From positions 2,914,001-2,978,000 of the forward strand of contig NC_089432.1 of assembly GCF_026210795.1 (NCBI RefSeq): a DNA stretch of 64,000 nucleotides, read 5' to 3'. Below, piece by piece: positions 35,767-64,000 of this stretch. Numbering within the stretch: the first letter of the stretch is position 1; each line of letters starts with the position of its first letter. Below the pieces are notes generated by a model that was not told where the DNA came from, made no database searches, and was given only the letters and a program-made list of their open reading frames with translations. The DNA comes from Rhizophagus irregularis (lineage: Eukaryota). The translations under genes and the position numbers were made by a program.

Positions 35767-38700
35767 ATGTCTAATAGTACTGAATTTAATTCAAATGAGT
35801 GGATTGATTGGATTGAAGAAGCTATTGCAAAAAAGCACATTAAATATTACGATTACAAACATTTTAATAATATTCAAAGAAATTGGTTCTGGAGGTTTTG
35901 GAAAAGTATATCGTGCTAACTGGAAAAGTTTGCGTAATCATTTAGCATTAAAATCTTTCTTTAATTTCAATAACATTACAGTTAAAGAAATCGTTAATGA
36001 AGTAATTATAATAATTATATGTTAAAATTTTATCTTTTTTTTTTGTATTTCTATCTTTAATTATATATTACGTTCTTAACTTAAAATTTTATTTTCAATA
36101 TTAAGCTTAATCTTCAGCGCGAAGTAGATTTTCATGAAAACATTATTCGTTTTTGTGGTATTACAACAGGTATGATATATAATTTGAATCGTTATTATCT
36201 TTTTTTTTTGGAAAAAATAATCTAAATAATTTTTCTTTTTTTCTCAAAGCAAACCAAGATGATAATTCAAAAAAATATTTACTGGTTATGGAATATGCCG
36301 ATAGTGGTACTCTCCGAAATTATTTAAGTGAACATTTTGATAGTCTCACTTGGAAAAATAAATTGGATCTAGCATTTCAATTAGCTAATGCCATATCATG
36401 CTTATATGATGAAGGTATTGTTCATCGTGATTTGGTAGGTTATTTACTTCAGTTATTTACATGTTAATAAATTATACTGTATAATTTTATACTAATTTAG
36501 TCATTGCATTTAATAATAGCACTCAAATAATATATTAGTTCATAAGAATACCATTAAATTAGCAGATTTTGGTTTGTCAAAAAGGATTGAAGAATCATCC
36601 AATATTCAACAAAATTTATTTGGAAGGATTGCTTATATTGATCCACAAGCATTTAATAGAAAAAGGGATAGTAATAATAAAATACAAGTATATTCATTAA
36701 ATAAAAAGAGTGACATCTACAGTATCGGCATACTCTTGTGGGAAATTTCTAGTGGTCGGCCACCTTTTCATAATGACCCACATGATGTTGGTTTGGCTAT
36801 GGAAATTGTACGAGGTCTTAGAGAAAATCCTATACCTAATACACCTGCAGATTACATAAAAATATATACTGGTAAGTACAATTAAACTAATTAGATTAAT
36901 AATGACAATATTCTTTGCTAACAACCTAAAATTTTTTAAATGTATTGTAAAATTATTGTCACAATACATCATGTACTAACCATGATAAGATACTTGTTAT
37001 TGGGTTTGTAGGGACATCGTACAATATGCTTCTATTACAAATTTTGATATTAATTTATAGATATGTAGTAAGATTGATTACAAAAATATATAGTGGCAAA
37101 CCATTGTAAAATTAATTATAAATTGGAAATTGTAAATAGATCGTTGAAAATTTATTATAAAACGATTTGTTATACATGTATTGTAAATTTAAATAATAAA
37201 AATAAATTGTGTAATTAATTATAAGATATATATGTATGTAATGAATAGGCATAAGGCAATTTAAGAATCATAAACTCTCGTAGCCACGCTCAATTAAGGC
37301 AATGTATTACTAGACCTACGCTAAAGATGACTTTAGCAAGGCTTTCTTTGTGAATTAAAGAAATTTCATACACCTTGCCAGCTGGTGGGAAAGCCTATGA
37401 TTTTAACCCCAAATCCCAAATCCCAAATCCCCAAACATCTAGAGACCTGGATTATCTAAAAAAAAAAGGAAATTGGAATGTTGTAAAATATTTCATTGAA
37501 ATGCATAATTAGAACAGAGTTTCACCAAATTTTTCATGTGTTCAAACCAACCAACTGAAAAGGAAAGATGATGAATGTTAGTGACTATTCGCTAAAAAAA
37601 AAAATTTGAAGAAAAAAGTTAAATAACTTACAAAGTTCGCATCTAAAGGAGCCAATTCTAAAAAAAGAAAAAAGAAAGTTAGTATTTGTTTGTTAAAGTA
37701 AATAACTTAGTAAAAAAAAATATCTTACCAAAATTCTGCATCTAAACATTCAAAAAACCAAAGATCTATCTCATTAATAGGTTAGCATTTCATTAAAATT
37801 AAATACACCGTAATTTGCATCTCCAAAGATACCCAAAGAAAAAGCCATCTAAAAAAGAGAAAAAACAAAATGTTAGCAATCGTTTTATTAAAAAAATAAT
37901 TAAAAAATAACCATTTTCTACCAAATTTCCACATGTCCAAGAATTAAGCCATCTAAAAAAAGGAAATCGAAATGTCAGTATTATGTTTCAATAAGAATAA
38001 TTCAGTACTAAAAAAAAAATGGAATATTATTTTTTTCTTATAATTTCAATAAAAATACATACAAAACCGCAAAATAATATCTTGTTATCAATATTTTTAA
38101 CATACTCTAAATTTTTAAACACATGTTTAATTGCTAAACCTTTGTTAAGAAAGAAAAAGCTTGTAGGGAAAATATCAAGTCCTAAAGAAATCTACCTAAA
38201 AAAAGTAAAAATCGAAATGTTAGTAAATGTTTCGTTAAAAGAATAATTTAAAAGAAAAATAAAATTCCTACCGAAATCCTATGAACTAGCCCAAAGACCA
38301 AAGACTGCATACCTAGTTGTCTAAAAAAAAAGAAAAAAAGAACTAAGAAACTATTCAATAAAAACAATTGAAGAAAAAAAAAATATGAACTTACTGAAAT
38401 GTAGCATCAGGAAGATTGAGAGAACCACTTAAATATAAAGAATATTTAAATGGAAAGTACAGGAAAAAAGGACAGGAAGAGGGAAAGAAAGGACAAAGGA
38501 AAGGATAAGAGAAAAGAAAATGAAATAGGATAAAATGATAAAGGATTTGAAATTAAAGGTACAGTGGTAAAAGTTAAAAAAAAGTTGATCATCATATTTA
38601 TTAATTTTTAATCACATGAAACATGTGAAATATGGCCAATATTAACTTTTTTTATTTTTAAGCTGAAGCCGAAGTTCTTACAAGTTACTACAAAACAAAC

Positions 38701-41700
38701 CTAAAAAAAAGCAACCCATTAGTAAACATTTCATTATTTGATTTAAAGTAAGAAAAAAAATCCCCTCAGTTCTCCTTACTGAATTCTTACGCGTTCAGAT
38801 ACCAGAAGACTGGTCATCTACAAAAAGAAGGAAAAAGTAAAACGTTAGAATTATTTCGTTTGAAAGAGTTATTTATAACAATTCCCTCACTGACTTTTCC
38901 ATATATCCAAGTATTCCAAGGAACTGATCATCTACAAAATAAAATAAATGAAATATTATTGATCGTTTGTTAAAAAAATAAAAATAAAAATCTCCTCGCA
39001 GAATTTTTCATGCATCCAAGTACCTTAAAGAATTGATCATTTACAAAAATGAAAAAATGAAATGTTAGAAAAATTTCGTTAAAAGAATTATTTATTTAAA
39101 GAATAGAACTCTTCATATCAAATTTTCCACACGTTCAAATAACTTAAGAACCAGCTTCTACAAAATGAAAAAATTGAAATGTTAGAAATGTCTCATTTAA
39201 AGAAATAAATTTAAAATAAATAATTCTTGTAATCTCCTACCAAATGCTACGTGTCTAAAAAAAGAGTAAAATCAAAATGTTAAAAAAGAATATTTTCAGA
39301 TTTTACTACTATGCGTCCTGAAGATCTTGACTAAAAAAAAATTTGGAGTCCTCCTACTAAAATTTCACATGTCCAAAGGCCTGGCCGTCTAGAAAAAAAT
39401 AAAAATAGATGGAAGCATTTTGTATTGTAAAATAAATAATTATGAAAAAATCTTCCCACCATATTCCTATATGTTTAAGTATCTATAGAACCAAACCATC
39501 TAAAAAAATTAAGAAACAAGCCATTAAAAATCGTTCATTAAAATAAAACAAAGAAATAAATCTTGACAAACTTACCAAAATGTCGCATCAGGGACTGTAA
39601 AAAAAAATTGAAACATAGAAACATTTCATTATCTTGCATGATGTGCTTTCAACCTTTTTTTAAATCAAGTACAAGTGGGAGAAAAATAGGAAGTAATAAG
39701 GAAAATAGGAAATAATAAGGAAATAGAGAAATGGAAATAGGAGAAATGGAAAAAAAGAAAAGGAAAAATTTTTGCTGAAAAAATAAAATATAACCAATTA
39801 ACAGATAAGCTTCGTTAAAATAATAAAAAGAAGTTAAAAAAGCTTAAAAAAAAGATCCGCAAACTGAAAAAAATAGAAAATAATGTAGAAATAATAATTT
39901 ATTTTTTTTTTTACGAAATAAATAAATACAAATTAAAGTAACTAGTATTAGTTAGCATCATCTTACATAAATATATCATGTCACACAGATCTTTGCTAAA
40001 TTGACTGCGGTATAAAAATAGTCTAAATTAGTTTAATAATTTATTTATAAAGTCTATTAAAATTCATCTTGTTAAAAAATTATTTTATTTTTTTATTTTT
40101 TACTCCCTACTTTTACAACTTTGCAGTTGTTTTTCTAACAATGGTAAAAATAACTCATTCAAAATCATACAACATTAACAAAACAAACAATACTACAAGC
40201 AAAAATAAAACTATGTATAAACGTCAAAGAACATCAAACAGTACTATTAAGGAATCCAGTAAGATATTAATTTGTTAATTTTTTTCCATGATTTTATATG
40301 ATGATCTAACTTTAATAACCTGAGTAGGAAAAAAAAGGAAATTCATCCAACCCATCTGGTGAAAGTTTTGATGATGCACGCAATGATCTACTTGATGATC
40401 CAACTCTCGATGAATTTATTATGGATATTAATACTCCTCATAACAGTACCTCTTTTAATAATGAATCTCTTGAGGAATCGGATAAATCACCTATCAAAAA
40501 GTCAAATTCAAATGTAACTAAACGCCTTTTGCATTACAAACCTAATATTAACTTAAGAGATGGATTACTTCATTTACTGCATGTTGTGCATAAAAATTTG
40601 TATTTAATTATGAATCAAATTTGTATTAATAAATTTTATACTATTGGTGTGAAAAGTAAGAAAGAGTGCGTGAAAAGTTATTAGTAAAGAATATTTTAGT
40701 CTGACCGCCAGCGGATAAGTGAATGAAACACTAACATTATGTTAGGAACCTCCTTAACGAGCCAAATTAAGGAGAAGTAATTCATCGTCTTAAAGTGCGT
40801 GGTTAATCAGGTTAAAATACTTACTATTAGCTGTCAATGAAAAATAACAACGTAGTAGTTATATGGTTCGTTATATGTATGACAAACCATGTGTAATGTA
40901 TAAGTAAAAAAAATTGTTTAAAATCGTAAGATGACTTATTAAAATATAATTGTGGCTAAATAAATTACAAGTGCTTGTGTATTAATATATACTTGACAAT
41001 TTATAATCCAAAACTATTGTACAATTCATTATAGAATTTAAATATATTGTACAATACTTGTACAAGTATCGTACAATACATTACGTAAAATTTTAGTTGT
41101 TAGCAAAGTTGATTAATTATAAGCTTATGTATATCAGATTGCTGGAATTATGAACCAGATAATCGTCCAACTGTCAACCAGGTTATTGCAAAATTAGATG
41201 AAATTATTCAAAAAGAAAATGTTCAATTATCAAGTGAACAGAAGAATAATATTGAAGTTCCCAAAAATATTATTGATAATTCATTACATGGAGAAATGTC
41301 CCAATTTATTGAAAATTTTAATAATATGAGTACAGTCGAAATAGAACCTTTAATCTCATCAAATAATAAATTTAACATAATGGTTAATGAAATAATACTT
41401 CATCTTGAAAATACAGAAATGATAAGAAAAAAACATAAAGTCATTAATTATCTTAATAATCATAATAAAACTCCACAAGAATTTTATGCTTGGTTATTAA
41501 ATAATCAAAATGATTCAAATTCTACCTTTTTACTTGGAGTATTTAATCATTTTGGAATTGAAGTCAATGTTGACGAACAAAAAGCATTTGAGTTATATCA
41601 AAATGTGGCAAACTCTGGAAATGTATTTGGAATAACTAGTTTAGGATATTGTTATGTTGTAGGAATTGGAATCAGTGTTGACCAGCAAAAGGCATTTGAA

Positions 41701-48259: not shown

Positions 48260-51200
48260 AATAGGCCATTGATTTTATTTTAGTTTTATTCTTTTTTTTA
48301 ATTAGATATAATTTATTTTAAATATTATTAGAAAATTAAATGATTTGATTCTTTTAATTATTAGTATATTATTATATCTATAGAAGTTGCACAGGTCGAA
48401 TAATGTCAAATCGGTCATCAATCCGTCATCAATCGGGTATCCGATTTGTGCCTGATTGGTAACTGATTTCTTCAATCAGATACCAATCGGGCTGCCTGAT
48501 TGGTATCCGATTTCCGCCAAAATCCGACACCAACCGGTCAGTCCGATTGATGACGGAATGATATACCGATTGGTGACAGATATGCACATGATTGTTAACA
48601 GATTATTGATAGGTTGTTAACTGATTTATGCCTGATTGGTAGCCGATTTTACTTGTTTCAATCTGACATCAATCTGACATTGACCCGATTGTTGACCGAT
48701 TGTTGACCGTCTGTTGACCGACTGTTAACCGACTGTTGACCGATTGTTGACCGATTGTTGACCGATTGTTGACCGATTGTTTGCTAATTTAAATAGTTGA
48801 TTATAGCCGACATTATGTACATTTTATAGTGTAATTATTTATAAATTATGGCCTGTACTATTATACGTTTATAAAAAAATTTAAAATGATCACATTTGAA
48901 ATATATTTTATTATTCAGGTAGATTAATATTTACAATATAAATATATGATCATATTGTGTGATGTACAGTATATTCAATATCTACTACCACTTATTATAA
49001 TTTCATAAATGAAAAATTAGTATATTTTTGTTTCCAATCGCCGAAAGCAGAGACTGATTTGAAAAAATGAAAATATGCATCATATTAATCTCTTAAAAAG
49101 GTAGTGCTAGAAATAAAAATCGAATGAGACTTACACCATTAAGACTAATATTCCTCAAAAATTTATAAACATTTTTGTTCTGATCACTAAAAGTAGAAAC
49201 CGATTTGTTAAAAACGAAATTTGCATCATATTGATCTCTCTTAAAAAAAATAGTGCTAGAAAGGAATGGAACTTACATCATTAAGACCAAATAGCGCCTC
49301 AAAAGTTCATCAAAATAGGTACATTCTTGTTTCTGATCGCTACAAGTAGAAGCTGATTTAAAAAAAATGAGAATATGCATCATATTAATATTCTTAAAAA
49401 AGGTTGTACTAGTAATCAGAATGAGACTTACATCATTAAGACTAAATAGCCTCAAAGTCCATCGAAATAGATTCATCTTTGTTTCCGATCGCCAAAAGCA
49501 GAGGCTGATTTGAAAAATATATCATATTAATCTCTTAATAAAAGTTGTGCTAGAAATAAAATAGGAGTGAAACTTACATCATTAAAGCTAAGTAATACTT
49601 CAAAAAGTTCTTCATGTTTGTTTCCAATCACTAAAAGCAGGAGCCAATTTGAAAAAAAAATCGTTTTAATATCTTATAAAAATGATTATATCTGATGCTC
49701 CCTCAAACGCCAAAAAAGTTGTATTGGAATTAGGATCATATACTTCTCCGTGAATTAGATTCTTGGATTGCTATAACAGCCGTAATGCATTTCGAATTTT
49801 CGATAGCCGTAATGCATTATGACAGACATAATGCAATTTGGCAGAATTCCGTTATATCAGACATATTGCCAATTCGTCTGGCATCCTACAAAGAAATAAA
49901 GAAGAAACGTTAGTAACATTTCTCCAAAGAATATTACAGAACTCCCTCTCCTAATCCCCTTTTACCTTAACCCTAAAGTCCAGTTCATAAATTCATCCGG
50001 CAACCCTACAGAGAAATAAATAAAAAATCTAGTGATGTTTCTTAAAAAATTAAATATAACGAAAAACCCCTCTCTCAGTCCCCTTTTACCTTAATAATTC
50101 CAAAGTTCGGTCATATAACTCGTATTATTCATCCGGCAACACTACAAAAAAAGAAAAAGAGAAGCGTGAGAAATAGAACGTTTCTCTTAAAAAAATATAA
50201 ATATTAATTATCCCCCACTTACATAAATTCAAAGTCCAGTCGTATAACTTGTATTATTCGTTTGACAACTCTACAAAAAAGAAAAAGAGAAGCGTTAGAA
50301 ACGTTTCTCTTAAAAAAAAAAACAAAAGTATTATCCCTCTTCCTCCACTCACATACCGTAATTCAATAGTCTGGGTTGTATAAAAAATTAGTTTTTTTTA
50401 TAATGAAAATCGGTTTAACAGTTGAAAACCGAAAAAGAAAGTTTTTTTTAAAAAATAAATGAAATATGGTTTAAAAAAAACTGAAAAAGATGATTTTTTT
50501 TTAATAAATAATAAAAAAAAGATCTGATTCCAATCAAATCTGAACATCTGATCGCCAAACCTATTTTGGTATTTCGGCTAATTAAATCTGTAAAAATACA
50601 TAAAATTACGTCAAAAAGATGAAATTAATTGTTAATTAATTCACGCTGAAGTATATAGGATCAGGAGAAAACTTACGTCATTCAAGCTAAATAGTTTGGT
50701 TGCAGAATTGCATAAAATAAATAAAAAATATGTTTACCATTCAGATGAAAAATAAACATAAAAATTCACAGTATGAAACAAAGTAAAAAAAACTGAAAAT
50801 AAGCCTTATATGTTCGAAAGAAAAGAAAATTTAGTTAAAAAGAATATTAGCAAGTAGAATTAGAGTACAGAAGAAGCATCTTCACTGAAGTACCATAACC
50901 TTGAGTGTCCACTAGCAATGAAAGTTCATCAAAATCGGTATACACTTGATTCCGATCGTTGAAATGCAAGTCACTTTAGATTTCATTAGAAATGAAAAAT
51001 CGGAACCTCTTCATCTTAGCGTTATTTTTTGTAACTGGTTATATATAAATTTCCATAATGGTGAATTTTCAGGTGGTCATTAGTATTACAATTGGTCATG
51101 GAAACTTATATTTCATTATTAAGAACGGAATAACTATTGAATGAGCTATATTTTCTTACCGCCAAAAAATCTTAAATACTAATAGGCAATAATAAGAGCA

Positions 51201-52000: not shown

Positions 52001-53792
52001 TTATTCGTCACAAGCAATAGACACAGCCCTTTTAAGTTCACCATTATATCCCTTAAGTGTCCATTTTGGTGCCTCAACGGGTTTTCGTTCGTCTGCTATA
52101 TGGTCACCATATGTTCGAACTCGTTTTACTTCTTTTGCATCCTTGTCCAGATAGTTTCGTAGAAACTTGCGAAGCTTATTTATAAAAAGAATTAGCACAC
52201 TTGGTCTAAAATATTACATATTTTAACAAATTCACTTACAGTGTCCGAACGCCAGGGAAGGTCTTTCACGATAATATTATTATCTTCATCCGACTCTTCT
52301 GGACTGTGATAACAATTTTGTTTGGTAATAGGTTCCAATTCAGTAAAATTAAATTGGTCCAGCAAGCGATCATTACTCTTTTTTAGGTTGTTTATCACTT
52401 TCGTCCTCTTTCGCCTTTTCTATATAGATTATATAAATATAACAAAATTAAATAAATTAAATCTGGCGGCATACTAATTTACCTCTGATCGACGTGTATT
52501 TCTATGTTTTCTTTTTAATTCTTTTTTTTTCCCTTCTTCATCCTTGTTGTTGATTCAGTATGTATTCCGTTGGCTACGATGTCTCCTCTTGATAATTTGA
52601 TATATAACATTCTCGCTTATCGGGTAAATATTAGGATCTAAGAGTTGTTTGATCGTTGGAATTATTCTTTCAATTACTATCTTCTTTTGAGATTCGAACG
52701 TTTTACTTCTGTCTAATTGGCTTTCATCCGGCATTCTGGTAATATTCCAGAAAACATCTCGCTAGATAATTTATTGCAATTAATAAATTAAAGTATAACA
52801 AAAATAAACAATAATAACTGTAGAATTTATTTACACGTAAAGCTTCTTTCAAATCCTTTTCCATTTCGTTCAAATTATTGTACCGCTTGAATCCAACGGA
52901 TTCAGCATTAATCAACGGTCTATTGGAATGTCGGCGACTTCCTTTTTCAATACTTTCTTCTTCAGTTTCAAAACTACTATTTTCTTCTGCCCTTTTTCGT
53001 TTACCCTCATCGGAATTCAGTTGTCGATTTTTTGATCTTTTTCGGCTTGTTATCATTATCATGTCTTCGCTATCAGAAATTCGCTGATTTTTTCTTGAGT
53101 CCTTTCGTTTAACTTTATTATCCGCATCTTCAACCCACCGATTTTTTCTTGAATCCTTTCGTCTAACTTTATTATCTGCATCTTCGTTATCGGAAATCTG
53201 ACAATTTTTTCTTGAATCCCCTTGTTTGACATCATCATCTACATCTTCGCTATCGGAAATCTGCTGATTTTTTCTGGAGTCCTTTCGTTTAACTTTATTA
53301 TTCGCATCTTCAACCCACCAATTTTTTCTTGAATCCTTTCGTCTAATTTTATTATCTGCATCTTCGTTATCAGAAATCTGACAATTTTTTCTTAAATCCC
53401 CTTGTTTGACATCATCATCTGAATCTTCGCTATCAGAAACCCGCTGACTTTTCCTTAACTTTTTTCTGTTTTTTCTGGTAATGTTACTGCTAGGTTCGGC
53501 ACCTTTCGAAGAACTAACTTTGGTACTTTCCAGGCCTATAATGTTGTATGTGACAGACTGATTTATAAAAATTTCTTGGATATGCATTACAAATTCATTA
53601 TGCACCTTTTTTACGCCTATACCTTTATATTTCTCTCTTAACGAATCTGATATTGAGTCATCAGAATCGGTATAAGGTATCACTGACGTATCTGACTCAA
53701 CTTTTTGCTGACTTGCCCTGTTTAAAAAAAGTTAATAATAAATAATTGTAAATAAGTAACTGGTAGTAAACTAGTACAGAAATCACTTACAT
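52001..53792 (-). pseudogene. CACTA partner (accessory) gene, multi-exon, with one internal stop
   Basis: ATG split by an intron (53792-53791|53717); charged 60-aa internal duplication; C-terminal SPEESD..LPWRS and PKW; in-frame TGA at 52557-52555. Confidence 0.7.
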
Positions 53793-54300: not shown

Positions 54301-56588
54301 ACTAAAAGTTTCCGAACAGCTCTAGACAGACTAACTGGTAATAATATACTTACAAAAGTTGTATAAAAGAACGCGAAGTATTAAACGCAAAATAGGGGTA
54401 AATTTATTTATCTATTTAATCGATAAAACCACGTGACACATTGCTGGTTTTCACAAAAATATTATCAGTACAACCCTGGATTTTTAAAAATAGTTTATCC
54501 ATAAAATGTCCACGAAAATTAGAAATAAATTACCATGTTACTGTAAAACATGCAATGGGAAAATAGTGGATGAAAGGACAAAAAAGAGTCATGAAGAATT
54601 AGAAACTCAATTAGCTTTTAATGTTTCCGGATTTGTTCCCTCGGCAAATATGAATATGCTCTTGTCTAATCCTGAACCTAACATGACTCCTAGCCAGCAA
54701 CTTATCGCAATGGAAATTGATGAACCTATTATAGAAGGATCATCAAGAAAAGAAATTGGATCGGAACAAGAATCGTCTGGTGATGATAATTATGAAGCTG
54801 ATTTTGAACACTATGCTAGACGAAGACAAGATCGATTTCAAGAACCGGATGCAAATCAGTGTGATGAAAATTCAAATGATGATGAAAGTACAAAATCAAT
54901 TGTAAGTAGTGAAAACGACAGAGATAGTGACGATGAAATTCAATTTACTGCCCCCGATTTTGACGATGATACAGAATTTAAATATTCCGATACTACTATC
55001 GATTATGCAGATTCATGGATTTTAATATGGATTTTTAAATACCAATCAAGATTTCGTTTGTCAGACGTGTCTATCGACGTCTTGATCAAATTTTTTCGCC
55101 AAGTACTGGAGGATGCCAACAGGACAAGATTTGCTGACTTTCCATCCTCTTTATATGTCGCAAAAAAACTATTTAAATTCAATAAATGCTCAAAAATTTT
55201 TACGGCATGTACAAATTGCCATACATTATACAATACTGCTGAAATTGGTGATACAGAATTTAAATGTAAACATGTAGAATTTCCAAATCACACATTGCGA
55301 ACAAAAAGGGAACCCTGTGGAACAGTATTAACTGAGAAAATACCAATCAATAAAGGGTATAAAAGACGTCCCAAAATGTTGTTTCCTCTACCGAATTTAA
55401 AAATGCAAATAATTACCTTATACCAGCGACCAGAATTTGAACAACAACTTAGAAAATGGACCGATCGGCATATAGATAATGAGTTAATAACAGACATTTA
55501 TGATGGAGAAATTTGGAAATCGTTTCCAAATGATCAGACATCCCCATTTTTTTCACCTGAAAAAGCTGATTCCCACCTTGGAATCATGCTCAATCTCGAT
55601 TGGTTCCAACCTTTTGATTCGGCTGTATATAGTTCTGGTGCAATATATGGAGTTATTTGTAACCTCCCACGAGACCTTCGATTTAAGAAGGAGAATATGT
55701 TAACTCTTGGTCTTCTACCTGGACCAGAAGAAGCCAAATTACATCAAATTAATAATTATTTAGCTCCAATAGTAAATGAATTGCTAGAATTTTGGAATGG
55801 AGTTGATTTGCCATCCACTTATAATTATCCTAGTGGTAGGAACGTTAGAATGGCTGTAATTTGTTGCAGTAGCGATGTTCCAGCTACTAGAAAATTAGGT
55901 GGTCATATATCAGCACTTGTAGGATGCCATAGGTGTTATAAGAAAGCGAACAATGAAGGCGGCCAAAAATTAAATTTTGGAGGGTTTGAAGATATGAAAG
56001 ATTGGTTCATAATGAGAGATGCAGAAGTACATCGACATAATGCTGTAATTTGGAAAAAACAGCAGTCAGAAGAAAGTAGAAACAAATTTGTTAAGAGGAC
56101 ACATGTCAGGTGGTCTGAAATGCTCCGATTGCCCTATTACAACCCGATTAGACATTTAGTTGTTGATCCAATGCATAATTTATTTTTGGGCATTGCAAAA
56201 TGGATCGTTAAAAAACTATGGATTGATAGTGGAAAAATTACTCAATCTGACCTTGAGGCAATGGAAAAAAAGGCAGAAAAAATTAAATTACCTGCAAATA
56301 TGGGTCGAATTCCAAATAAAATTGCAACCGGAAATGGATTCTCTGGATTTACAGCAGATCAGTGGAAAACTTTCATATTAATTTATGCTATTCCACTTCT
56401 ATGGAATTTGCTAAGTAAATCTGATCAGAAAATTTTAGGAAATTTTGTCAGAGCTTGTTCTTTACTGGTCTCTAGAATTATCAATAATGATATGCTGAAT
56501 GAAGCTCATGAATGTTTGCTTAAAGTTGCCATATTAATTGAAAAAGATTATGGACCGGGAATGATCTCTCCAAATATTCATCTAAGCC

Positions 56589-59287
56589 CACTAGTCGAAA
56601 AAGGACAATTCGGCCTAAATTTGACCAGGTCGAATATAGGTCGAATAATGGTCTAACCTGTGTCAAATTGAGGTCGAATTTTCGGGCGCATTTAGGGTGC
56701 CAATCGTCCCAAATTCGGACTAATTATTCGACCATTATTTAGGTTTAAATTGACCAATATTCGACCTTAAAACTTTAAGCCGAATTATGGTCTAATAACA
56801 ACCCATTTATTTATAAATTTATTTTGATTTTTTTTATCAAATTTATTAAATAAATGTATTTATTAATGCTTAAATACTTTATAATTATATTATTATTATT
56901 GCATCTATCTAATTTACAAAAAATATTGCTAATTCTAATACAATTCCACAATTACATGATTCATGTATTCGTATATACGAATCTTTGATTGTTCTTTAGC
57001 AATCCATCCGAACCTATAAAAAAAGAGAAGAACAGTTAGTAACCGTTCATAATAATAAAAAAAAATAAGAAAAAAAACCAAGATTCGTACTTACGAATCT
57101 TTGGTTTTTTCCGTTCTTCAGAAGATACCCGAGACACCTGAGACCTAAAAAGAAAAGAAAAGAACGGTTATTAGTAACCGTTCATAATAATATTAAAAAA
57201 AAAATCAAAAAAAATAAACTCTTTTCCCGAAGGTCGGAAGCCCACTCCACCCGATCCTAAAAAAAAGAAAGAACGGTTATTAGTAACCGTTCATTAATAT
57301 TAAAAAAAAAAAATTAAAAAAATTAAACCAAGATTCGTACTTACGAATCTTGGTTTTTTCACACAAAAGCCCGCCCGAACCTATAAAAAAAAGAAAGGAA
57401 CGGTTAGTAAACCGTTCCAAAATGATAAAAAAATAAAAATAAAAAAATATATAAAGATTCGTACTGTACTTACGAATCTTTATCTTTGGGTTTTCGTTCT
57501 TCGGAAGCCCACCCGAACCTAAAAAAAAAAGAAAGAATGGTTAGTAAACCATTCATAATAATCAAAAATAAAAAAGATTAAAGATTCGTACTTACGAATC
57601 TTTGGGTTTTCGTTCTTCGGAAGCCCACCCGAACCTATAAAAAAAAAAGAAAGAATGGTTAGTAAACCATTCGTAATAATCAAAAATAAAAAAGATTGAA
57701 GATTCGTACTTACGAATCTTTGGGTTTTCGTTCTCCGGAAGCCCACCCGATCCTAAAAAAAAGAAAAGAACGGTTATTAGTAACCGTTCATATATTAAAA
57801 AAAAAACAAAAAAATTAAACCAAGATTCGTACTTACTTACGAATCTTGGTTTCTTGGTTTTCCGTTCTTCGGAAGCCCACCCGATCCTAAAAAAAGAAAA
57901 GAACGGTTATTAGTAACCGTTCATATATTAAAAAAAAAACAAAAAAATTAAACCAAGATTCGTACTTACTTACGAATCTTGGTTTCTTGGTTTTCCGTTC
58001 TTCGGAAGCCCACCCGATCCTAAAAAAAGAAAAGAACGGTTATTAGTAACCGTTCATATATTAAAAAAAAAAACAAAAAAAATTAAACCAAGATTCGTAC
58101 TTACTTACGAATCTTGGTTTCTTGGTTTTCCGTTCTTCGGAAGCCCACCCGATCCTAAAAAATAAAAAAGAACGGTTATTAGTAACCGTTCATATATTAA
58201 AAAAAAAAACAAAAAAAATTAAACCAAGATTCGTACTTACTTACGAATCTTGGTTTCTTGGTTTTCCGTTCTTCGGAAGCCCACCCGATCCTAAAAAAAA
58301 GAAAAGAACGGTTATTAGTAACCGTTCATATATTAAAAAAAAAAACAAAAAAAATTAAACCAAGATTCGTACTTACTTACGAATCTTGATTTCTTGGTTT
58401 TCCGTTCTTCGGAAGCCCACCCGATCCTAAAAAATAAAAAAGAACGGTTATTAGTAACCGTTCATATATTAAAAAAAAATCAAAAAAAATAAACCAAGAT
58501 TCGTACTTACGAATCTTGGTTTCTTGGTTTTCCGTTCTTCGGAAGCCCATCCGATCCTAAAAAATAGAAAAGAACGGTTATTAGTAACCGTTCATAATAT
58601 TTTTTTAAAAAAATAAAAAAAAAATCCAAGATTCTTACGAATCTTTGGAATTTTCCCGTTCTTCGGAACACGGAAGCCCACCCGAACGGCCGAATCTAAA
58701 AAAAAAAGTAATAAAAGAACGGTTAGTAACCGTTCATACTAAATTAAAAAAATAAATAAATAAACCAAGTTTCGTACTTACGAAACTTGGTTTTTCCATA
58801 CTTCGGAAGCCCACCCGAGCCTTTTAAATGGGCGTCTTGAATCTAAAAAAGAAAAAAACGAAAATGTTAGTGAAACGTTTCGTTAAAAAAAGTAAAAATT
58901 CGAAGGTATATGTATACCTTCGAAAGAGATAAGTGACGAAAGGAAAGGGAAAAGGGTAAGGAAGGGAAAAGCGAAGGAAGGGAAAGGAGAACGAAGGGAG
59001 GGAAAGGGAAAGAAGAAAAACTGGGACGAAAGAAAAGGGGAACGAAGGAAGGGAAATGGCGAGGAGGGAAGGAAGAAAATTAAAAAAGTTTAAAAAAGGA
59101 TCATCCTTTTTTAAACTTTTATTTTAATACGCGTATCGCGTAATGCGTAACGTTTGATTAACATAATTCAACTAGGTTGAATATATGTCTAATCGTAGAT
59201 CTTTACTAATTGAAGTCGAATTTTATTAATTCTAGTCGAATATAGGCCAAATTGTATTAAGGCCGAATATTCCTTTTTCAACTAGTG
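56589..59287. mobile_element. Non-autonomous CACTA element, 2699 bp
   Basis: TIR CACTAGTCGAAAAAGGACAATTCGGCCT / AGGCCGAATATTCCTTTTTCAACTAGTG; 3-bp TSD GCC (56586-56588 and 59288-59290). Confidence 0.96.
56990..58925 (-). repeat. ~15 tandem units (116-136 bp) of microexon + hairpin-structured intron
   Basis: Minus-strand unit: TTTTAG|GATCGGGTGGGCTTCCGAAG..ACCAAGATTC|GTAAGT..TACTAAY..poly-Y..TAG. Confidence 0.9.
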
Positions 59288-61781
59288 GCCTTCATCTTGC
59301 AGAATGCTGTAAAGATTATGGCCCACTATATTCCTTTTGGTGCTATTCATTTGAAAGGATGAATGGAATTTTAGGTATTTTTTCCAAATAATGAGATTAT
59401 AGAGGTGTGATCTGCTTAGCGTTATCCAGTCAAAGTCACGTGATATGTCTGTTAATTTCCTTTTTGGGATTAAATGTTATACAAATTTCCAAAAGGAGGC
59501 GTTTCCATTTTTAGATTTTTTTTTTTTGAACGAATATCACCCAAAAAAAAAAATGATCAGCATACTCGTGTATAACCGGATCAGATAATTGGCTCATCGG
59601 CTGATCAGATCGAATTTCATTTAGATTTATTTGACTTATATTATTACTATCTTTAGGTTCCTTTCCGAATAGCCGTCGTCAAATTGAGCCGGAATTACTA
59701 CGAATTATTATGCAGAATTGGAGAATCGATAATCTTATATCCTTTCGATCAGATGATGTTAAACTTTCTGAAGGATTAAAATTATTAAGATCCCAGAGCA
59801 CTACTGGCACTCTTGCCGCTTACGATGAGCTAGATTTTGGTGAACTACTTCAATTTAGACAAATTTTTTGTCAAGAAATTGATGATACAATTAATGGTAG
59901 TGAGCCATTTCCTGGAGAAATGCTTAAACCAAGTAAAAATCGGGTTGCTTTGCCTAATGATGTTTATAAAATATTAACCGACTACTATAATAGTGCTTAT
60001 GATCACCAATTTTTAACAATTGCCGAGTCAACATCAACCAATTCAGGTGGCTCTATTGTTGTACCAAACATAGTTAATCAGTTTGCCCGTGTTAGAATTG
60101 CAGCAGAAATTTTTGGATCAGCAATGTCACCTCGGTACTTGAAAAATGCATATATTTTGGCGAAATTCGTCCAAGAAAACCAAGGAAATGAAACAACCGA
60201 TTTATATCCTGGTCAGGTGCAATATTATTTTGAGCATACAATCAGAATATCAGGTGAACCTACGACTCATCGGTTGGCATTTATCAGATGGTACGAACCA
60301 GCACCAAACCGGCATATACGATTTTATACAAGTATCGATGAAAATGAAAACAGCTCAAATATTGAACTCTGGCAAAATAATTTTTATGATTTACGCCGGG
60401 ATTGCTTAATCCCAATTCATTACATATATAGCCGATTTGTATCTTGTAATTTTGTAGTTGGTAAAAAGAAATTTGTTTCATATCAAGCTGTAATACCAAT
60501 CAATAGGCAATTTCACATATAATAAAGTCTCGTTTATTATTTCTTCTGTCTGAAAAATTTCCCCACTTCTTTTTCTGATTTCTTATCAACTAATTTTAGT
60601 TTAATTTCTTGTTTTTCACCTATTAAGTTCCATCCAAAGAGATTGAGAGAATTACCTAACATAGGTAAAACGATGGTTAACCGGCATGATTGTCGGTTGG
60701 AGTATATCTTTAATATGTAAATTAGAGAGCAATCGGTATCAATTACAAATTGGATATAAATCAGAAGAGTATCAGAAGTATGCTGATTATTGTAGTTAAT
60801 AAAGAAATCTTCCGACTTGTAACTATTTATATATTTGAATATTATCAAGTTGGACAAGTAAATTGTATTTTCCGATTTATATTTTCGTCACATACAAATA
60901 AAAGGATGTTTAAATAATCATTTCAGTTGGTATATTTATTGGTCAATTCTGAAGGGCAACTAGTTGTTGCCAATAATTAACTACAATCGGAAACCACATT
61001 TTTATTAACAGGTAAAATAAATACTAGAGGTGCCAGTGAGTATGCATATTTTATCCGTGTTATCAATATGTGGTGCAACAAATAAATTCAGCAATAAGAA
61101 AATCAATTGCGCAATATAGTATAGCATGATACATAGCAAAAAAAAGGCAAATTTATTCGCTCTCATCCTGTCACGTAATCATATAATAAATGTTTTCATA
61201 TTTAATAAATAATAAATTATAAAGTTATTTTTTATAAATTAAAAAAAAAATATCAAATGAAAAATCAAAGTCGTTTAACAAAAAAAAAGTCATATGAAAA
61301 TCTTGTATAAACATATTGGACGGATATTCCAAAATCTGGATAATTCCCAACTCTCTTTTTTCAATAAATTAAAAATATTCATTTGGTAATAAAGATTTTA
61401 TATAAAATAGCATACCATCATGACTACTACAACCACGACCATGACCTCCTTCTCTCCATTCCCTAAAATTATTTAAAAAAGTCTAAATAATAAAAAAAAC
61501 TTGCTAAATTTAAAATTCTTGCTTCTCGATCATTGGTATTGTGTACCATATAATAAAATTAGAAAGAATGCAGGATCAGTTGAGATGGGGAAAATTATAA
61601 TTTCTGAAAATTAAATTAGAATTTTACATTTTTTTTATGTAGAAAAAAATTAGAATTCCCATTTTATATATGATACAATATATACTAATAGACATACAAC
61701 TAATATTTTTATGTGATTATGTAATCAATTTTATTCAAATAACAAAAAATTTTAAAAATAAAAAAAAACAAATACAATACT

Positions 61782-63250
61782 TTAAATGTTATTGTTATTT
61801 CTTTCAATTGCTTTTGCCGTTTTTTCAGATAAAGTAATTGCAGCAGTATACCTGGTTCCACCATCACTTAAGTCAAGTTTAGATGTACCATGTACCGCTT
61901 TAGTCAACCAGCACCAAATGGAATTTGACGACATTTCAATTGCAATACCATATTCTGGGTAAAAAAAAAATCCATCTTTAACTATTCCTTCCTCATAAAC
62001 ATATCCCACAGCATATTCTGACCGGTCATTGTCTATATGTCCAATTGCTTCATAATTTTCAGTACAAAATACTGCACCTATAATTTCATTATCATCTAAT
62101 TCTGATTGATTTTTAAATTTTTCATAAGAATCGACAGACCAGTGCAAATGTTGTTTTCCAAATTCAAACAACCATTTAGCCAAAGTAATTCCATTCTCAC
62201 AAAGTATTTTTTGTTCCTCAGGGTTAGAAGTTTTATAAACATATTTGTCATAACCAGAATTTAAACGATTGGGACGAAATCCGTCACCAACCATTTTTCC
62301 AAAAGATGCATGTGCCTTTCCACGTTTAATGATAGGATGACCTTCAATTATCGATTTAATTTTTATTCCAAAATGATTTGATAATTTTTTTATTGCTGCA
62401 TCACGTATGACCGCACCTACAGCTTTACCATTATATTTTAAAATAACTGACTTATTTTTACCAATTATTTTAATTTCTAAATCTTTTAGCAAATTAATAT
62501 GATCACCACTGTCAAAACAAGAAACCCTTTTTCCTAGATATTTATTTGCTAAGTCAGGACAGTAGTCAACTTCTACATCTAACATCGATGTTTCCATATC
62601 ACCTTTGTGTTTTAAATCTTTTGGAGTAATCTTAACTCTCTCTTTCCAAATATCTAATAAATATTCATTTTTTGTATTGATTAAATGTCGAGAAAATGTT
62701 GATAAAGGATCCTATAAAATAAAAATTTTTTTTTTTAACGTTAATATTGTTAAAAAAAAAATACCATTAATTTCCAAAAATAAGCAACTCATACATACAT
62801 GCATTACAATCATTTTGGCTGAAATTATAAAATTTTAGCCAGAATTACAAGTAAAAAAAAAGTGCTTATTTTTGGAAAATAACATTGACATAAATAAAGT
62901 ATTCCTCCCATCCTTCTTTTATAAATAAGAAAGAATTAATTCTTTTCTCACGTAAAATTTGGTTAGGAGGTATATTTATATTAATACCCTTTCTATCCTC
63001 CTTCCACAGGTCTTTAAAAAGAATTAAAACTTTAATATATTATAAAATTTGTTTAGGAGCATACTTAAATATATCTATGCCATTTATAATTTTAAAAAAA
63101 AAGATGAATAATAAAAATACATTTATCTAATATTACCTTATTCTTAATTCCTTTTTCCTTTAACCATTCTTCAAATCTTTCTGATTCTCCAAATAAAACT
63201 TTACAATGTAATTTGCTTAATCCACAAAGTACATTTACAACCTCATCCAT
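61782..63250 (-). CDS. TET/JBP-like 2OG-Fe(II) dioxygenase; last exon 62711-61782, upstream exons tentative
   Basis: HxD (GHIDND), distal H (VHGT), 2OG-binding R (TRYT), GFFFYPEYGIAIE and GKMVGDGFR. The frame stays open upstream to an AG acceptor at 62712. Confidence 0.78.
62763..62885. mobile_element. Small MITE in a putative intron of the dioxygenase gene
   Basis: Inverted repeat TTCCAAAAATAAGCA / TGCTTATTTTTGGAA. Confidence 0.55.
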
Positions 63251-64000
63251 ACTAATAGTAGTAGAAGATATCTTAAAGAAATAAAACTTCGTTAAAAATC
63301 TAATTTTCACTTTATTTATTTGAAGAAGGATAAATAAAACGCTACATACTTTTTTTTAGAAGATTCAAAAAATTTTTAGACCGTAAAAAAAAAAGCAAAA
63401 AACACCTTAAAAAAAAAAAGATTGATAATCAGATAATCTAGTTTGGGTATACAAGCCATCAGCAAGTCACGGGAAAAATGTTCATTCCTAAAATGTTCAT
63501 CATAAAAATATGTTGAACATCTATATTAAAATCTATAATAATATAATCAAAATTGATTCTCTACACGCGCGTAAGAAATATCCTTCACAATTAAAATTGC
63601 ATTGCATTCATCTTTACATTTTTTAATCTGAAGCAGGTATCTACAAATAAAAGTAGACACCATTAATATTTCTATCAAAAACGAAAAAAAACTTACAATT
63701 TTTAAACATTAATCATACTTTTCGAACCTACAAAAAAACAAAGAAAAGAAAATTTAGAGTTTCTGCTAAAGAAAATAAAAAAAAAAGATGGTAGGTTTAC
63801 GCAACGAAACTTACCATTTTAAATTCTTAACTCAATACCCCAGACAATCTACAAAAAAAAAGATTATGGTAAATTTCTTAAAGATAATCTATTAATTTAT
63901 TGCTTACTTAGTAAACTAATATAAAACATTATATTTAAAAGATAAAGAAGATTGAAATGTAAAGGTAAATAACAATAAAATCGAAGTGTAATCATGCCCA

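Follow-up and report, generated by a model that had tools for sequence, protein, structure and literature searches.

A non-autonomous CACTA transposon of Rhizophagus irregularis carries an array of short exons and introns with predicted hairpins over the splice signals, partly spliced in RNA of its family

Why should a transposon without a protein gene of its own carry a long row of spliceosomal introns? This question is raised by a locus in the 64,000-nucleotide stretch of the Rhizophagus irregularis genome analysed here (the window). Our analysis showed that positions 56589-59287 of the window form a 2699-bp non-autonomous CACTA element which starts and ends with CACTAG. Its arms are 37 nt long and 86% complementary in inverted orientation; the terminal inverted repeats, each with a CACTAG start, lie at 56589-56620 (plus strand, 3′ of the transcript) and 59256-59287 (minus strand, 5′ of the transcript), and short TTCGAC/TTCGGC repeats were recognised by eye near each end. 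A 3-bp target-site duplication, GCC, is found on either side (56586-56588 and 59288-59290). The insertion splits the plus-strand frame of a host CACTA transposase (Transposase_21, E 6e-14) into a 5′ part at 54497-56588 and a 3′ part at 59291-60522. With the element removed this frame stays open over the empty site and is then followed by a likely intron and a 295-aa frame. The duplication together with the continuous host frame indicates a real and probably recent insertion.

Inside the element no transposase was found, only low-complexity frames of 86-104 aa, and spliced models of it match hypothetical proteins without domains; the first-pass annotation, made from the sequence alone, had likewise described a nested CACTA element with no recognisable protein gene. 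With its CACTA...TAGTG termini, inverted repeats, 3-bp duplication and lack of its own transposase, the element is a non-autonomous member of the CACTA/CMC-EnSpm group. In these features and in belonging to an expressed family it is like the non-autonomous elements of that group (CMC-EnSpm and Plavaka in R. irregularis, as treated in parts of PMC11075540 and PMC8647823), from which it differs in its cargo of tandem structured spliceosomal introns and likely non-coding RNA. Contig depth at the element ends was about 21,000-57,000 in one contig set (X1) against 26-306 for single family contigs, which only hints at hundreds of family copies and is not a copy number.

Two minus-strand frames were noticed close to the host transposase. 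One, at 52724-53731, is a 335-aa charged repeat frame of 54/63-bp units, divergent from the host transposase and with no Pfam match, and is a candidate accessory gene of the host element. The other, 309 aa at 61782-62711 and downstream of the host transposase, has a weak match to Tet-like 2OG-Fe(II) oxygenases (E 0.02, below the cut-off) and no meaningful match among solved structures, and may be a TET/JBP-like cargo of the host element. Fungal transposons are associated with TET/JBP-like genes.

The minus strand of the element carries 15 acceptors and 14 paired donors, with introns of 75-93 nt. The donors are GTAAGT in 12 cases, GTAAGA in one and GTATAC in one. Internal exons (n=13) are 36-61 nt long, and the proposals of short exons, 46 nt in the core copies, and of lengths mostly not divisible by 3 both agree with our measurements (six exons of 46 nt; 8/13 not multiples of 3). 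About 15 units with donor and acceptor had been proposed; the array itself is real, except that the unit at 57256-57145 is without a donor. Further, a donor-like GTATAT at 56978 is not followed by any acceptor downstream.

From its 5′ end the minus-strand array is arranged as follows. An 18-bp palindrome (59084-59120), directly upstream of the RNA start and also present at locus L009, is a candidate promoter element. Exon 1 (58918-59084) is a CT-rich leader, 91% pyrimidine over 151 nt, and is followed by a 75-nt intron 1 (58843-58917) with a donor hairpin (58899-58924) unrelated in sequence. Then come a 61-nt exon with an 86-nt intron (58696-58842; intron 58781-58696), whose donor stem contains a compensated change from A-T to T-A, and a 57-nt exon with an 82-nt intron (58557-58695; intron 58638-58557). 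The core (57753-58556) is composed of six near-identical units of a 46-nt exon and an 84-90 nt intron, with a near-identical repeat period of 136 bp, donor stems of 11-15 bp and branch stems of 9 bp; five of the six units have a doubled donor, GTAAGTAAGT. Beyond the core there are two units with 39-nt exons (57519-57752; intron 57595-57519, 77 nt), with a compensated change from C-G to T-A in the branch stem, a 45-nt exon with a 93-nt intron (57381-57518; intron 57473-57381) and a 36-nt exon with an 88-nt intron (57257-57380; intron 57344-57257). The broken unit (57145-57256) consists of exon start, branch hairpin and acceptor, its donor being lost; it precedes a 50-nt exon with an 81-nt intron (57014-57144; intron 57094-57014). 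The last exon and an A+T-rich 3′ region (56800-57013) include a donor-like hairpin at 56967-56982, with no acceptor beyond it.

Is this array unique to the locus? A pattern scan of metagenomes gave nine loci, four of which are family members, and the other five were dropped as chance matches. No match to the family pattern was found in the prokaryote genomes, and all three matches on viral contigs were chance matches. The four metagenome loci and 157 database proteins support a dispersed family, for which a search for copies had been proposed. Locus L009 shares its end, palindrome and CT leader with the window element; its first intron is another one, though likewise with hairpins at donor and branch. 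The order and number of unit types vary among the five loci, donor-less units are found in the window element and in L001, and the flanks beyond the array differ at L001 and L008. At L001, positions 1-340, 3′ of its array, do not match the 3′ end of the window element. The array may thus ride in more than one element family. On the strand opposite to the element, the insertion flank of L009 (1145-1305) holds two branch-hairpin acceptors about 105 bp apart and, as far as sequence can tell, is another structured intron array.

The hairpins are concentrated on the splice signals. We counted 28 perfect stems of at least 8 bp in the 2.7-kb element against 36 in the remaining 61.3 kb of the window, five shuffles of which gave 5-13. 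Of the 28, 27 coincide with a donor, donor-like or branch motif, and the remaining one is the 18-bp palindrome just upstream of the leader. However, only three or four of the stems are independent, because most are copies of two ancestral stems. Folding z was below −2 for 11/13 donors and 13/13 branch regions (13 of the element's 14 introns were caught), as compared with 0/18 donors and 1/18 branch regions of the other introns of the window, these controls being motif predictions within the window and not annotated introns. Caged splice signals as a genome-wide trait are therefore unsupported within the window. The donor had been placed at the tip of its stem and the branch motif in a loop. 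Caging of the donor by a hairpin was corroborated, with donor positions +1 to +3 within the stem and the loop beginning at +4; the branch hairpins are also real, but in the TACTAAC units the branch A is situated in the 3′ arm.

GTAAG is retained in 35/40 donor hairpins of the five loci while the loop behind it is highly variable, and three mutually unrelated donor sequences are each caged by a hairpin. RNAalifold found no consensus for 26 donor regions because the variability of the loops prevents the 3′ arms from lining up. An anchoring script, which selects donor-like starts and mis-registered 2/29 hairpins, found stem position −4 paired in 29/29 distinct hairpins (A-T 23, T-A 5, G-C 1); the three pair types reflect two or three events, not six. 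One-sided changes on the sense strand gave G-U 4 vs C-A 3 in branch stems and G-U 1 vs C-A 2 at donor position −1, and the better-folding strand differs between two homologous hairpins. Since stem changes are compensated yet have no sense-strand bias, template switching could be the origin of the stems; as described in part of PMC8794818, it can produce stems and compensated changes in one step. At the donor CpG of the 40 hairpins, decays that kill the donor (2) and harmless ones (2) are equally rare, so no selection on the donor is demonstrable at the CpG. The balance of G-U and C-A, the differing strand preference and these even decays count against a role of the stems at the RNA level. Nineteen weak Rfam matches were obtained, none at the gathering score and none a snoRNA. 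A small-RNA precursor is disfavoured because the stems are only 9-15 bp and no Rfam match reached the gathering level, and a mirtron or hairpin precursor was rejected on the same short, local stems, the donor stem straddling the exon end and the intron ends not being paired together.

It is quite possible that the array is a neutral passenger: an intron-containing leader captured by a mobile element and expanded in the manner of a minisatellite, with palindromes left by template switching and splicing that follows from copied signals. This is what the near-identical 136-bp core units, the unit order and number differing at five loci, the donor-less units of the window and L001 and the unbiased stem changes would look like, and palindromes are 3-7 times the shuffled level elsewhere in the window too (36 vs 5-13). 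What it accounts for less well is the placement of 27/28 stems at splice signals, the unrelated first donor among them, the sparing of GTAAG by loop variation (35/40), and the fact that a cargo of about 2 kb and a defined start of the RNA persist in the family.

The RNA was followed in two raw poly(A) RNA runs of one study (unstranded libraries, about a quarter of each run used). Reads were placed on 58515-59400 (1009 and 1259 reads) and 56540-57640 (1239 and 1617 reads) at a likeness threshold of 88%; the core 57641-58514 was left out, so reads of the core block 57753-58556 are those on its first 42 bases. Reads at least 99% alike were few (38/1009, 63/1259, 77/1239 and 125/1617), and the RNA data therefore describe the family and not this copy. 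RNA depth was 0 over 59085-59204 in both runs although DNA contig depth there was as high as elsewhere, which indicates a start of the RNA within the element. It is in the leader (58918-59084) that the family RNA begins, as had been anticipated. At the other side depth declines from 56980 to 56800; neither start nor end was called as sharp.

Splice joints of the GT..AG type were found in both runs, on the minus strand, at intron 1 (58842>58918, 4 and 9 reads), at the 93-nt intron (57378>57472, 21 and 10 reads) and at the 77-nt intron (57516>57594, 29 and 27 reads). Joints were thus present at 3/7 introns covered by reads, and one more was seen through a variant copy (58638-58557, 5 and 13 reads), so that junctions do map to predicted minus-strand GT/AG sites. 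No joint at introns 58781-58696, 57344-57257 or 57094-57014 was among the joints listed (15/34 and 15/55), and the mapping skipped some repeat stretches and dropped joints there (all of 57344-57257, part of 57014-57144). Exon-to-exon joints of 39 nt (12 and 19 reads) and 43 nt (9 and 5 reads) show consecutive exons with the donor moved by 4 bases, and in a copy with a mutated first donor the reads join at the second; use of two alternative donors in family RNA is shown by these joints. We set aside circular RNA as an origin of these 39-nt go-back joints, as consecutive near-identical exons yield the same pattern. A stwintron was also rejected, since the doubled donor is a 4-nt alternative donor and an internal branch and acceptor are absent. 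Four contig sets contained none of these joints, and contigs lose rare forms; sets X13 and X19 were dropped as RNA, being without splice joints and, in the case of X13, spanning the untranscribed ends, and were treated as DNA-like or uninformative.

Splicing is only partial. Depth was 177 and 231 in the intron bin 57539-57575 vs 264 and 279 in the exon bin 57613-57640, and 5 and 22 in intron 1 vs 30 and 38 in exon 1. Intron interiors as a whole lie at about 0.2-0.8 of the neighbouring exon depth, rough ratios given unstranded libraries and no control gene, and retained-intron reads could be antisense capture, the introns being A-rich on the opposite strand. The transcript had been called highly spliced; its GT-AG splicing is real, but it is incomplete. 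C>T and G>A dominate the differences between copies, which suggests that most copies have probably been methylated.

Poly(A) RNA with high intron-to-exon depth, along with strong predicted hairpins, brings up the idea of a stall signal, in which caged introns would hold spliceosomes and lead to RNAi, the siRNAs limiting the family or its autonomous partner or titrating the silencing machinery. In Cryptococcus siRNA is triggered by stalled spliceosomes, and young R. irregularis transposons make small RNA, according to parts of PMC6643885 and PMC8647823 respectively. We consider this explanation improbable: splicing completes in many reads, and self-silencing should hold back the spread of an element, while this family is abundant.

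Could the exons be translated? The 157 database proteins match the translated exons, and all are from R. irregularis among the matches listed (at least 120), as are the first 15/15. One of them, GLOIN_2v1775927, is a model of this locus or an identical one and starts with a peptide encoded outside the element at 59508. Several isoforms are annotated per locus. Among 121 fetched proteins, three frames are used in 58, two in 52 and one in 11, and their starts and ends are scattered, with none in common. The 31 distinct exons of the five loci fall in all three length phases (14, 12, 5), and 14 have a stop triplet in some frame. Gene finders translate the array because the consensus exon is stop-free. 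None of the 19 longer gene models has a Pfam domain above the cut-off or a common downstream domain, and long fusions join unrelated mobile-element sequence such as reverse transcriptase. The family RNA is likely non-coding, and the proposal of a non-coding or frame-agnostic RNA is backed by the 110/121 proteins that switch frame and by exons of every phase, many with stops. That basic repeat peptides are made from a consensus exon open in every frame and under any splice pattern is very hard to credit. The database entries, their annotated isoforms and an ATG in exon 2, from which the fully spliced model stays open for about 155 codons, would agree with it, but the mixed frames, phases and stops, the scattered ends and the lack of domains do not.

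Protein models also bear on whether the element is a deletion derivative, its array being the spliced 5′ leader of an autonomous parent's gene and acting as a translational or splicing brake on a transposase or accessory protein. Multi-exon leaders occur in CACTA elements and count for this origin, as do the differing flanks beyond the array at L001 and L008 and the GA-rich leader that starts many gene models in place of a CT-rich one. We nevertheless think it decidedly unlikely, as the 19 models scanned have no common downstream domain, the long fusions join unrelated sequences and the RNA ends inside the element. The GA-rich leader, in kind the reverse complement of the CT-rich leader, was seen in P0002, P0007, P0013, P0062 and P0096 and at 400-450 of L008, which hints at a subfamily whose leader is inverted or at a second kind of promoter context.

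The explanation that we favour, and only tentatively, is that this non-autonomous CACTA element has the intron array as its sole cargo and that the array is a candidate licence which makes its RNA resemble host mRNA. The array would have grown as a few types of exon-intron unit were duplicated in tandem and reshuffled, with template switching likely creating and repairing the hairpins. By prediction these make donor and branch harder to recognise, so that introns would be retained; the doubled donor in the loop may be a backup for the first one, which has its G within a CpG prone to mutation. Repeated loading of spliceosomes would make the RNA more stable and reduce the silencing of the element, which would putatively leave it more available to a transposase supplied in trans. 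In the parts of the literature that bear on this, mRNA level is raised cumulatively by intron number in Cryptococcus (PMC3744415), and CG methylation is lower in expressed transposons of R. irregularis (PMC8647823). Slow splicing caused by hairpins would fit a licence badly, in view of the siRNA that stalled spliceosomes trigger in Cryptococcus; hairpin-slowed splicing and the dominance of C>T and G>A among copies are the weak point of the licence. Neutral tandem expansion stands close behind it. Bolder, and rather doubtful, is the extension that R. irregularis transposons share and reshuffle among families a protein-free counter-defence cassette of promoter and hairpin-tuned introns, which would load spliceosomes as a mark of self; similar arrays in the window suggest a whole class, much of it mis-annotated as orphan genes.

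Our literature search, which left most subscription journals outside its scope, found no description of such an architecture. Several known systems share parts of it. The snoRNA host lncRNAs GAS5 and UHG have a pyrimidine-rich leader, many short non-coding exons and introns as their main content; here no snoRNA or other Rfam family is present at the gathering level, and the 75-93 nt introns are in tandem in a mobile element. Micro-exon genes of Schistosoma have runs of tiny exons and alternative splicing, but their exons are in phase and coding, while the exons here are of every phase and tolerate stops. RNAi from stalled spliceosomes (SCANR) was reportedly described in Cryptococcus by Dumesic in 2013. 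Intron-dependent mRNA accumulation and SCANR, as presented in parts of PMC3744415 and PMC6643885, are alike in that splicing sets the fate of RNA, including transposon RNA, in a fungus; they differ in being a host pathway that acts on coding transcripts, while this transposon carries little but splice signals.

Introners and introner-like elements (parts of PMC3609843 and PMC9860276) comprise hundreds of similar spliceosomal introns with stable predicted structure, and many similar introns of this kind were also found here. Introners insert singly into unrelated genes, between non-homologous flanks. Here introns and exons have been multiplied together, head to tail, within one transposon; at each of the five loci the exons on either side of an intron are tandem copies homologous to one another, and, unlike in introners as covered there, the hairpins are local over donor and branch. 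The words intron and hairpin are absent from the main texts of PMC11075540 and PMC8647823, and the passages covered of the assembly preprint (10.1101/2022.10.19.511543) do not mention the array. The repeat libraries in the supplements of the R. irregularis transposon papers may hold the family as an unclassified or CACTA consensus. The vehicle is ordinary; the cargo is undescribed and experimentally supported.

If the licence is true, the family is a natural experiment, run in many copies, on whether a fungal RNA can be recognised as self by its introns alone. The copies have different numbers of units, donors in different states and stems of unequal strength, and published maps of methylation and small RNA are there to compare them with. 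If the array is neutral, it is a clear case of intron birth through tandem duplication, with real splicing. On either reading, at least 120 'hypothetical protein' entries of R. irregularis are accounted for by transposon RNA that is likely non-coding, a point that matters when orphan genes are counted in this model root symbiont.

Other minus-strand regions of the window also have repeated exon- and intron-like sequence. Behind two CT-rich leaders (at about 39770-39680 and 38540-38460), the region 37300-39800 holds a second, degenerate series of predicted introns and short exons; it is internally repeated, unrelated in sequence to the focal element, and without strong hairpins or clear terminal repeats. 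At 49030-49620 there is a 152-bp tandem repeat with a GTAAGT donor per unit and exon-like parts of 52-76 nt, possibly what is left of a coding repeat. At 49850-50500 four predicted introns follow each other in tandem; their homologous exons, of 40-52 nt, contain stops, and hairpin-like sequence is present at the branch motifs (z −6 for the single one scored). Finally, 63600-64000 contains short exons, predicted introns and a caged donor; a 66-nt part of it matches the 3′ end of the L008 array at 85% likeness, and it is probably a related array cut by the edge of the window.
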